UHGV virus genome: UHGV-0266300
DNA from: a virus
Length of the DNA: 41,552 nt
Reading direction: 5' to 3' (one strand)
A program made the position numbers. Positions 27,001-30,000 of the stretch are shown here, in pieces; positions within the stretch are counted from its first letter, which is position 1; each line of letters opens with the position of its first letter.

Positions 27001-30000
27001 CGGCTCCGTAGTCCTGGTATTCGATTTTCATTCCGGATGCTCCTGAGCCACGTTGAAATCGCCATGATCACGACAAGGCATCACAACAAATTCAGGATTG
27101 CCATACATTGAGTTGATGATGGAATCAAACTGAATTCTGACCGCTTGCCCGTCACCGGAGGGACGTAACTGGACGGGAATAAATTTACGCTCACGACCAA
27201 ACATCTTCTCTGGATAACTCAGGTAACCCGCCTGGATCACCGGGTGTGTACAGAGGTCAAATTTTTTCGGAATGATGCGTTCCAAATCCGGAAAACAACC
27301 GTCCACCAGTTTAATGCCGGTAATGGACAGTCGGCGCTGAAACTGGTCGCGATGAACAGCGATCGGCTCTTTACTAAAAATCAGCTCTGTCGTTTCGGCT
27401 TTGGCCGGGACGCCACCTTCGAACTGGACAATGATGTTTTTCTTCGTCCGGATGCCGTGAGTCATGCGCAGTGCTACGAAACCATTGGTTGCCTCAATAT
27501 GTTTTGGCGTGATGTGAAGACCGTTCAGGTAATAACGAACGTCGTTTTTAGCAGCGCACACCAGAGCGGCGCGAATAAGTTTTGACTGGATGATCATGCT
27601 TTATCCTCCCATCCGATTACCTGGAAAAGCCCCATCTTCGGGTGATACCAGCGTGTGCCGCGTGGTTCAGCCTCTGACATCATTTGGTGGAACACCACCA
27701 TAAATGTCTCAAGCTCGACGACAGCCCTGCGAGACAACAGACCGTCCGGAGTCATAAATTCGTGCGTGTCGGTAGGGATGTGGTAGGCGTTGACCAGATT
27801 CCGACACTTGGCGTCACTCATTCCGCTTTTGGCTACCACCTGGCGGTAACCGACATATCCGGTGCGCATTGTGCCGCGTTTGATGTTCTCCACAGCTTTG
27901 GTGACCGTTTCGATCTTCTCTTCAACATGACTCAGGCGCTTCTGCTGGCGAACGGCATCGGCGGCCATTGCAGCGATCATCTCCATTTCCGTCAGCGGCG
28001 CGTGAGTTCGGAAATAACTGTTAACCAGTTCGCGCTGAACCTGCCATGCAAGAGCATCGTTAAAAGGCTTCGTCAACATCAGGTAACCAGACTCGAAAAG
28101 AATGATCCCTTTGGCAGTTCGCGCGGCAAAGGCATCAGAAAGTGACTCCGTACGTATTACGTCCGCAGTCATTTCAAGAAAATCCACCCCTTCGATAAAG
28201 TGAGAACGGTTGCGGTTAAACGCAGCACGGGCGGTACCTTCCGGGCGCTGGTGGACGTCATCAATTATTGCAAATGTCACAACACGCTGACTGCGATATT
28301 CGATTACCGGAAACTGTTTGTTGTTGATGGTTACAGTATTCATTTTTATCTCCAGACAGCCCTGCGTGTAATACCGGGCATATGTATTACTTGACCTGAA
28401 TAAATGGTGTGTTGGCACCGCTGGTCATGTATTGCGGCAGTGTACCGTTCCACTTGTTGATGGCTTCCAGCTCCATAACGTTTGGGTTCTGGCGCAGAGC
28501 TTCACCGCGTAAACGAATAGCGTCGGCTTCGGCCTGGGCTTTTGTGCGAATCGCATCAGCCTGTCCGGCAGCTTCCGCGCGCAGCATGTTTGCCTCTGCT
28601 TCGCGTTGCTTGACTTCCTGCTCGCGTTGCAGGGTTTTCTGGTTGGCCGTGACTTTGGCATTAATGCTGTCGATAACAGTAGGCGGGTACTCCGGCTTAC
28701 CCACATATGAGAGGCTCATTACCTGAATACCGATGGGCGTCATTTCTTCCTGAATGTCTTTAAGAGCTGCATCCAGCAGCTCAGACTTGCCGCCGTCGAT
28801 AAATTTGTCGGTGGTCATTTTGCTGGCCAGTCGGTTGAGTGCGTCGGCTATCTTCTGGCGCAGGTCGGTGTCGGTAATGTCGTCCACGCCTTTGCGGTAG
28901 GTCTGAAAGACTGTGGTAACTTTGGATGGATCAACTTTGTAGGCCACGCCGATGTGATAGCCGATGGTTGTACCGTCACTCATCTGGAAACTGAATGGAT
29001 CATCGTAGGTCTTCATCTGCTTAAAGGTCGGGAAGATGTAAACCTCAGTGTTCCATCCCGTCCAGTAGCGCCCAACACCGACCACTTCACCGACGCCTTT
29101 ATCGTCGCCCAGTTTGTTTACTTTGATGCCCACATTACCAGGCTCAACGCGATCGCAACCGACAAGGCCAATGGTCGGCAGAACAAGGGCTAAAGCAAAA
29201 AGTAATTTTTTCATCTTTTATCCTTAGAAAAAGAAAGACCCTTATAAATGGCATAAATGCAGGGCGGGGTCAGACACGCCAGAGCAAAGCCAGAAATCAC
29301 TGCTACCGTATCCTTCATTGATATGAGGGCCGGAACGATTAATCCGTAAATACATGTGATAATTGCCAGTGATATAACTATTCTGAAATAAATGTTCATG
29401 GTCCTCCTGATGTATTCGGCTTGCCTTATTTAATTGCGTCATGGTTAATTTCGTTTACGTCAGAATGGTTTTGTTGCCATCAGTTCGTAATATCCGGCGC
29501 TCCATGTGTCATATTTTCTGAACCATTTTTCTGTATACTGTTTCCTGGCGATGAGTCTGCGCAGTCGTCTGATTGTTCGCTGGTGTGCGCGGGTATACTC
29601 TGTGGTTGATTCTCCACGTTTCCATATCTCATTCCTGTTGAAGATAAAACGCTTGTCAGGATAGCGTTGTCGGAATCCTGAACGTTCAAAAGCGCGGGTG
29701 GTCATAAAGAATGCCAGGTAACGAATTGCCGTTTTTCGGGTGAGGCATTTTTTTGTTCTTCCGTGGCGTGTTACAAAAAATAACGGGCCGACGGGTGTAT
29801 CATGTTTCTGTAATGCCTGGTCAATGGCGCTGGCGGTGCGGTTGTCGATCATTTCTTTATTTCTCCCGAATAACGTTCATGACTCATTACTTCCCAGTTC
29901 CGGCCGTCGTCTTTCGATAACAGCCGCCAGCGACGGTTAACCTTCAGACTGAGATATCCGGTGCGCTGTATCCGATGCGGAAATATCCGTCGGCATCGGT

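Follow-up and report, generated by a model that had tools for sequence, protein, structure and literature searches.

Based on profile comparisons, structure prediction and residue mapping, we propose that the minus-strand gene at 27028..27597 of virus genome UHGV-0266300 (41,552 nucleotides, the complete stretch analysed here and referred to as the window) encodes a beta sliding clamp (DnaN) homologue that has been reduced to the partner-docking cleft of the clamp. In bacteria, replication and repair converge on the beta clamp as their hub; its partner pocket, an antibiotic target, docks the clamp-binding motifs (Q-L-x-L-F type) of Pol III alpha and epsilon, delta, Hda, Pol II, IV and V, and MutS and MutL. 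The 189-aa phage protein, hereafter the mini-clamp, would be a 'pocket-only' derivative of beta in which this cleft is built from domain II, the connector between the domains and the second half of domain III, and loss of domain I and of the first half of domain III would preclude both a closed ring on DNA and clamp-style loading. Expressed from the early leftward operon, the protein may then capture clamp-binding-motif peptides away from the ring and divert clamp partners from host beta, whether by competing for them, as a sink, or by tethering them, so that host replication and repair would be re-wired to the benefit of the phage. We assign a probability of roughly 0.4 to the mini-clamp being a non-ring, off-DNA docking module that competes with host beta for its partners, a reading drawn from sequence and predicted structure.

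The relationship to the clamp is unambiguous at the level of the family, and the matches of the single sequence are weak. Taken alone, the protein scores below the cut-offs of the Pfam model for the central domain (DNA_pol3_beta_2, PF02767; E 0.0048, 17.6 bits, cut-off 27) and of TIGR00663 (E 1.9e-4, 20.5 bits, cut-off 137.65), and it does not match the Pfam N- and C-terminal DNA_pol3_beta models. Comparison with PDB sequences using phmmer aligns residues 5-114 to positions 136-253 of E. coli beta, with E ~0.002-0.003. The family HMM built from 190 members, however, matches E. coli DnaN at 82 bits, and hhalign with a 20-sequence alignment places residues 5-117 on DnaN 136-256 with 98.3% probability (E 1.2e-14). 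The clamp fold, i.e. the beta-alpha-beta3 repeat, is present as well: the AlphaFold2 model is confident (pLDDT 89.7, pTM 0.85), and the best 50 Foldseek matches in the PDB are beta clamps only. Family HMM, hhalign and fold hence all support what a sequence-only reading of this DNA had put forward, namely a partial DnaN homologue comprising domain II, the linker and the DnaN C-terminus.

The four motifs on which that reading relied are all found, in the order it gave, and they delimit the parts that have been kept. Residues 1 to ~115 represent DnaN domain II and the interdomain connector (DnaN 132-253), the domain II-like domain itself spanning residues 1-110 (27268..27597, minus strand) according to hhalign. 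This part contains DVRYYLNG (residues 19-26, DnaN 150-157; 27520..27543, minus strand), with the pocket residues R152 and L155, which as R21 and L24 are conserved in 99% and 97% of the family. It also holds ATNGFVALRM (residues 36-45), the first five residues of which (36-40; 27478..27492, minus strand) correspond to DnaN 171-175 (ATDGH) with the pocket residues T172, G174 and H175. The third motif, KLVDGCFPDLERIIPKK (residues 96-112; 27262..27312, minus strand), covers the end of domain II and the connector and supplies P242, R246 and V247. Helix alpha2 of domain II has been swapped for a loop in which G61, P64 and A67 are conserved, and DSSP assigns no helix to residues 60-68 of the AlphaFold model. 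The connector is followed by a single beta-alpha-beta3 unit (residues ~116-176; 27070..27252, minus strand; pLDDT 84-96) that aligns to both domain III repeats, best to the C-terminal one (DnaN 314-365), and the second HMM domain likewise places family positions 137-195 on DnaN 314-365. The unit includes an IGFNxxY-like helix start, Y125 (DnaN Y323) and the terminal VVMPxR strand, the latter read here as FVVMPCR (residues 170-176; 27070..27090, minus strand), equivalent to the C-terminal strand 359-365 of DnaN (YVVMPMR) with V360, M362, P363, M364 and R365 of the pocket. Nothing corresponds to domain I or to the first half of domain III (~DnaN 254-312). The earlier description was thus right about domain I and overstated the loss of domain III, most of which it took to be missing: HMM and residue mapping show that only the first half (~254-312) is deleted, and that the C-terminal beta-alpha-beta3 half is kept.

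What these segments share is the pocket. In DnaN the clamp-binding-motif pocket comprises subsite I (R152, L155, T172, G174, H175, R176, L177, P242, R246, V247, V360 and M362) and subsite II (H175, N320, Y323, V344, M362, P363, M364 and R365) (PMC11139829). Residue mapping identifies both subsites in the mini-clamp (R21, L24, T37, G39, P103, R107, I108, Y125, V171, M173, P174 and R176), with 17 of the 18 positions alignable and 11 of the 18 identical to DnaN in this copy. Conservation was scored on the 190-sequence family alignment, in which divergence extends to ~30% identity, and is highest, in DnaN numbering, at R152 and G174 (99% each), P242 (98%), L155 (97%), M362 (95%), T172 (94%) and P363 (91%), followed by H175 (89% as H; F in this E. 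coli copy), Y323 (85%) and R365 (83%). Pocket residues account for seven of the ten and ten of the 20 most-conserved family columns (hypergeometric p 1e-6 to 2e-7), and the rest of the top columns lie next to them within the same three motifs. Part of this signal could reflect the detectability of homologues, the pocket being also the most conserved part of DnaN itself. The parts kept appear to be essentially the minimal elements that build the docking cleft, and those lost the ring-making ones. This lends plausibility to the earlier suggestion of a decoy that titrates clamp-binding factors, insofar as the pocket residues are the most conserved positions of the family; the binding of peptides we infer from them. 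We note that the pocket departs from that of DnaN in family-specific ways, with V for R176, A for L177 and C for M364, and that this E. coli copy additionally has F for H175 and Q for N320; the ligand may therefore be other than the canonical motif.

A lambda-like prophage of E. coli makes up the window. Its lambda-type structural gene set lies in bases 16-22326, which match Escherichia phage PhiR40_1 (86% of a 25-kb query at 98.7% identity), and about a dozen complete E. coli genomes share a 1.8-kb segment around the mini-clamp gene at 100% identity. The gene sits between a cI-like S24 repressor (31692-32423, minus strand) and a lambda-type xis (23798-24016, minus strand), and synteny with lambda places it in the leftward early operon, in agreement with the early location assigned originally. 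Further minus-strand accessory genes of the window encode AntA, DUF551, Ea22-like, ORF6N and SPFH proteins, and genes for a helicase, for a Toprim primase and for a Q-like antiterminator lie on the right side. Of replication enzymes, the ORFs examined in the window include the helicase and the primase but no DNA polymerase. As read from the sequence, the mini-clamp gene shares an ATGA with each neighbour, its ATG overlapping the upstream stop codon and its stop codon (27028-27030) the downstream ATG, which makes it an internal cistron of the operon; a strong Shine-Dalgarno sequence, GGGAGGA (27604..27610, minus strand), lies 6 nt 5' of the ATG. The translationally coupled neighbours are, upstream, an antirepressor-like gene (27594..28418, minus strand; phrog_1726; true start likely the ATG at 28343) with an ORF6N N-terminal domain (Pfam) and a conserved C-terminal domain, and, downstream, a 77-aa ORF (26798..27031, minus strand; phrog_1001) of unknown function. 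PADLOC defence-system models match neither the mini-clamp nor its neighbours.

The mini-clamp belongs to a large family of similarly short proteins. Close homologues (57-82% identity, 176-191 aa) are encoded by prophages of Salmonella, Klebsiella, Kluyvera, Serratia, Providencia, Photorhabdus and others, and a profile search of 1.84 billion representatives retrieved at least 1132 clusters (50% identity) at E<=1e-10, the best 150 of which have lengths nearly all between 170 and 215 aa. Relatives were detected by tblastn in ~250 phage records, among them many siphoviruses of 40-60 kb, either virulent or temperate, with hosts in Salmonella, Escherichia, Klebsiella, Vibrio, Acinetobacter and Burkholderia, and BFVD holds many viral proteins of ~180-210 aa with the same whole fold (TM ~0.8). 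The mini-clamp matches the short phage beta-clamp-domain family PHROG 3007 over its full length and in size range and architecture (E 3.7e-65, residues 1-179 on 3-188 of 190).

The surroundings of the gene vary. In the enterobacterial prophages examined it is always in the early-left operon, between repressor and int/xis, and in a marine metagenome phage it is the last gene of an early operon. Shigella phage DS8 has it closing an operon with ParB-like and HNH genes, and two other phages, Dhillonvirus TheodorHerzl (Bas14) and Shewanella phage 1/41, carry it as a lone opposite-strand gene within the structural module. No consistent link to replication modules was found in the loci examined. Since the gene occurs alone in unrelated contexts, its carriage suggests that the ligand is universal and encoded by the host, and is not a dedicated partner of phage origin. 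A regex scan for canonical clamp-binding motifs in the proteins of the window returned only an internal, probably chance QLLLRF in a 119-aa ORF and a QAGLF, likewise internal and probably due to chance, in the repressor. The scan gave no match in the non-structural proteins of TheodorHerzl, a further point in favour of the docking-module reading.

A role away from DNA is suggested by what has been lost. The beta dimer interface consists of Ile78 and Phe106 packing against Ile272 and Leu273, together with ion pairs of Lys74, Arg96, Arg103 and Arg105 with Glu298-304 (PMC11139829). All of these residues map to DnaN 1-131 or 254-312, segments without counterpart in the mini-clamp, so that the canonical head-to-tail interface is absent and a canonical ring is unlikely. 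The same deletion of both interface halves, in domain I and in the first half of domain III, disfavours the non-functional heterodimers with host beta that had been envisaged from the sequence. Pairing with a host beta monomer as a poison subunit that blocks ring closure or loading is accordingly very improbable, the more so as the host dimer is extremely stable (pM Kd, half-life ~43 h; review PMC11139829). In its favour, clamp beta-sheets run across subunit boundaries, and loss of half of domain III would be expected to leave an open sheet edge or core surface; with such a surface exposed, some oligomeric state of the mini-clamp itself is possible, next to the monomeric state that we propose. 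The affinity of monomeric beta (I272A/L273A) for delta exceeds that of the dimer ~50-fold, yet the monomer supports no processive synthesis (review PMC11139829), which shows that an off-ring pocket is competent to trap ligands. As a soluble copy of the docking cleft, the mini-clamp might in particular act as a sink for motif-bearing proteins (e.g. delta, Hda, TLS polymerases or MutL), by which host replication control or repair would be disabled or redirected early in infection; this more specific proposal is a tentative one. Against a general sink, a prophage without polymerase presumably needs host Pol III and its clamp loader, so that a strong sink would be self-harming, and selectivity, if any, would then depend on the altered residues of subsite I. 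Against a soluble decoy, the basic character of the family (median pI 8.7) fits a DNA-binding tether at least as well.

Such a tether is the main rival to the pocket-sink reading. Here the basic mini-clamp would be held on DNA without a loader, as a non-ring processivity factor resembling UL42 and UL44, and its pocket would retain some motif-bearing enzyme, for instance a polymerase from the host (Pol III or Pol I) or from a phage (PolA). High pI has been noted for viral clamp homologues that lack a loader, as for the non-ring UL42 and UL44 (PMC3201878), and the mini-clamp, with a pI of 9.08 as compared to 5.25 for E. coli beta, combines this property with the clamp fold; about a quarter of the family, however, has a pI below 6.9, and domain II, with alpha2 replaced, has lost a helix that would line the DNA channel. 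No polymerase was seen among the window ORFs examined, the gene was never within a replication module in the loci examined and is found on the opposite strand amid structural genes in virulent phages, and a regex scan of the non-structural proteins of TheodorHerzl, which encodes its own PolA, detected no canonical clamp-binding motif, in PolA or elsewhere. Monomeric beta is unable to tether Pol III processively (review PMC11139829). We regard the tether as rather unlikely, and less so than the other alternatives. Among these, the upstream regulator may form a two-gene module with the mini-clamp, with the ORF6N, Rha or Bro-N regulator docking on it as a cofactor in analogy to the clamp-assisted transcription of T4 gp45 and Mu MuC, the latter reportedly being a precedent for a phage regulator that uses the clamp pocket (PMC12867686). 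The two genes are coupled by an ATGA overlap in Klebsiella, too, where the C-terminal 134 aa of the antirepressor-like protein are 79% identical to those of the pRha protein upstream of the mini-clamp; this C-terminal domain is constant, with the N-terminal DNA-binding domain swapped between ORF6N, pRha and Bro-N, and it recurs upstream in Providencia and Limnobaculum loci. However, many Rha-family regulators of the rightward operon in E. coli have the same domain and lack a mini-clamp in their vicinity, other loci have one to three genes between regulator and mini-clamp or a different C-terminal domain, and the copies in TheodorHerzl and Shewanella phage 1/41 have no antirepressor-like neighbour. 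A KMGLF near the C-terminus of the regulator resembles the delta motif AMSLF, but it was discarded as a clamp-binding motif: it is conserved only in close homologues, the Serratia homologue reads DFGGF, and GLF is modelled as a buried beta strand of the folded domain (AlphaFold pLDDT ~89), not as a free tail. As the domain also occurs without a mini-clamp and the motif is modelled as buried, the functional link between the two proteins is unproven, and the two-gene module is improbable. Finally, the gene could be a functionless remnant of a captured dnaN, as the copy of Fels-1, split into two ORFs, might indicate, or encode a RusA-like Holliday junction resolvase, as stated by the label of phrog_3007 that has been copied to many RefSeq phage records. 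Both notions are essentially refuted by conservation and fold. Purifying selection (dN/dS 0.15 relative to the Klebsiella homologue) and family size exclude decay, and the RusA-like label is wrong, as the Pfam RusA domain and the RusA fold are both absent.

Returning to the docking module, comparison with known systems shows how far the mini-clamp deviates from a functional clamp. E. coli DnaN (P0A988; PDB 1MMI and 2POL) is homologous to it, in both sequence and fold, from domain II through the connector and again in the second half of domain III, with most pocket positions more than 85% conserved in the family. In contrast, DnaN is an acidic protein of 366 aa with three domains that scores above the curated cut-offs, whereas the mini-clamp is basic, has 189 aa without domain I, the first half of domain III, alpha2 and the dimer interface, and falls far below the TIGR00663 and Pfam cut-offs. 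Monomeric beta I272A/L273A shares with it a pocket outside the normal dimeric ring, but is a laboratory form with complete domains. A natural shortened form also exists in the host, as Skaliter and Paz-Elizur reportedly described in 1996: beta*, a UV-induced form of E. coli beta comprising domains II and III. Unlike this stress-induced host protein with its complete domains, the phage family evolves separately, is further pruned and is basic. The herpesvirus factors UL42, UL44 and BMRF1 comprise two complete domains each and work with a viral polymerase dedicated to them, in contrast to the prophage, where no polymerase was seen among the ORFs examined. Closest in kind are the short forms that make up five of 12 phage polIII-beta homologues in the survey of Kazlauskas and Venclovas (2011; PMC3201878), likewise shortened, without domain I and without a clamp loader; going by their description, these contain 'the second and third domains', and the mini-clamp has half of the third. 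A full-text literature search returned this note on short forms as its one relevant item and no functional study of a truncated or decoy phage clamp, in line with the earlier remark that the protein could not be placed in a described phage function.

Members of a large family, pruned to the pocket, occur as a stand-alone accessory gene in temperate as well as virulent phages, which implies a recurrent, so far unstudied manipulation of clamp-dependent processes. Other phage early or regulatory proteins act on the beta-clamp network by binding the host clamp or its loader, e.g. Twort Gp168 (PDB 7EVP) and, reportedly, Mu MuC (PMC12867686), whereas the mini-clamp would imitate the docking site. 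If the sink proposal is correct, this would be host takeover through mimicry of the binding site of a hub, a mechanism distinct from those of Twort Gp168 and of N4 gp8, which is said to target delta, and with more than a thousand clusters it would rank among the commoner phage accessory functions. If peptides are bound, the family would also offer a natural minimal pocket scaffold for inhibitor screening. As an object the family is not new, having been annotated and noticed previously. The identical E. coli gene is named 'beta clamp domain-containing protein' by PGAP, and phage relatives are variously labelled 'DNA polymerase III beta subunit', 'beta clamp domain protein' or 'RusA-like Holliday junction resolvase', the last of these a mis-annotation propagated through PHROG- and pharokka-based phage records.

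The family to which the mini-clamp belongs, PHROG 3007, is named 'RusA-like Holliday junction resolvase' in PHROGs, a label that has been carried over to dozens of phage genomes in RefSeq or annotated with pharokka (e.g. NC_025458.1, NC_031924.1 and NC_054650.1). We reject this identity, as the protein is a beta-clamp derivative by sequence and fold, and displays no similarity to RusA. In the mini-clamp of the window, Phe40 (codon 27478-27480) occupies the position of DnaN His175, which spans both pocket subsites (PMC11139829), and 89% of the 190 aligned family members have histidine there. 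Near relatives carry His, Cys or Arg, so this position is unusually variable among the enterobacterial prophage subgroup. In Salmonella phage Fels-1 (4696-5330), a frameshift has apparently broken the mini-clamp homologue, which is annotated as two ORFs (STM0896 and STM0896.2n), and its C-terminal piece probably matches the separate PHROG 27198.

Where lambda has the O/P replication genes, the window instead encodes an SF2 (ResIII/DEAD) helicase and a Toprim/zinc-ribbon primase (33702-36329, + strand), with similar modules being present in Fels-1 and some Klebsiella prophages. With such an arrangement, one may ask by what means a helicase foreign to the host is coupled to host Pol III.

Three antirepressor-like genes, all on the minus strand, are located in the early-left region, namely the ORF6N-type gene (27594-28418), a phrog_1726 paralogue (24964-25743) and an AntA/P22_AR_C gene (24101-24724). 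The C-terminal domain of the ORF6N-type protein (residues 141-274) recurs at 75-98% identity in several hundred members of the ORF6N and Rha families, and in a Limnobaculum homologue Bro-N substitutes for ORF6N. The combination of a common C-terminal domain with differing N-terminal domains (ORF6N, Rha or Bro-N) indicates that domains of antirepressor-like proteins are shuffled as modules.

An SPFH/Band-7 lipoprotein gene (phrog_200, 28387-29214) and a 62-aa ORF (29211-29399), the product of which appears hydrophobic by eye, are translationally coupled on the minus strand. DNA of ~90% identity recurs in phiP27 and P88, in many Stx phages and in P1-like phages, where it is frequently annotated as 'serine protease'. 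The lipoprotein had no match in PADLOC.

A Q-like antiterminator (37186-37533) is followed by a gene for a 262-aa pertussis toxin S1-like ADP-ribosyltransferase (37704-38492, + strand; Pfam Pertussis_S1, E 1.4e-15, also Scabin-like and Enterotoxin_a) and then by the holin. In Stx phages, stx occupies the same slot between Q antiterminator and holin. The ADP-ribosyltransferase is possibly toxin cargo carried by the prophage.
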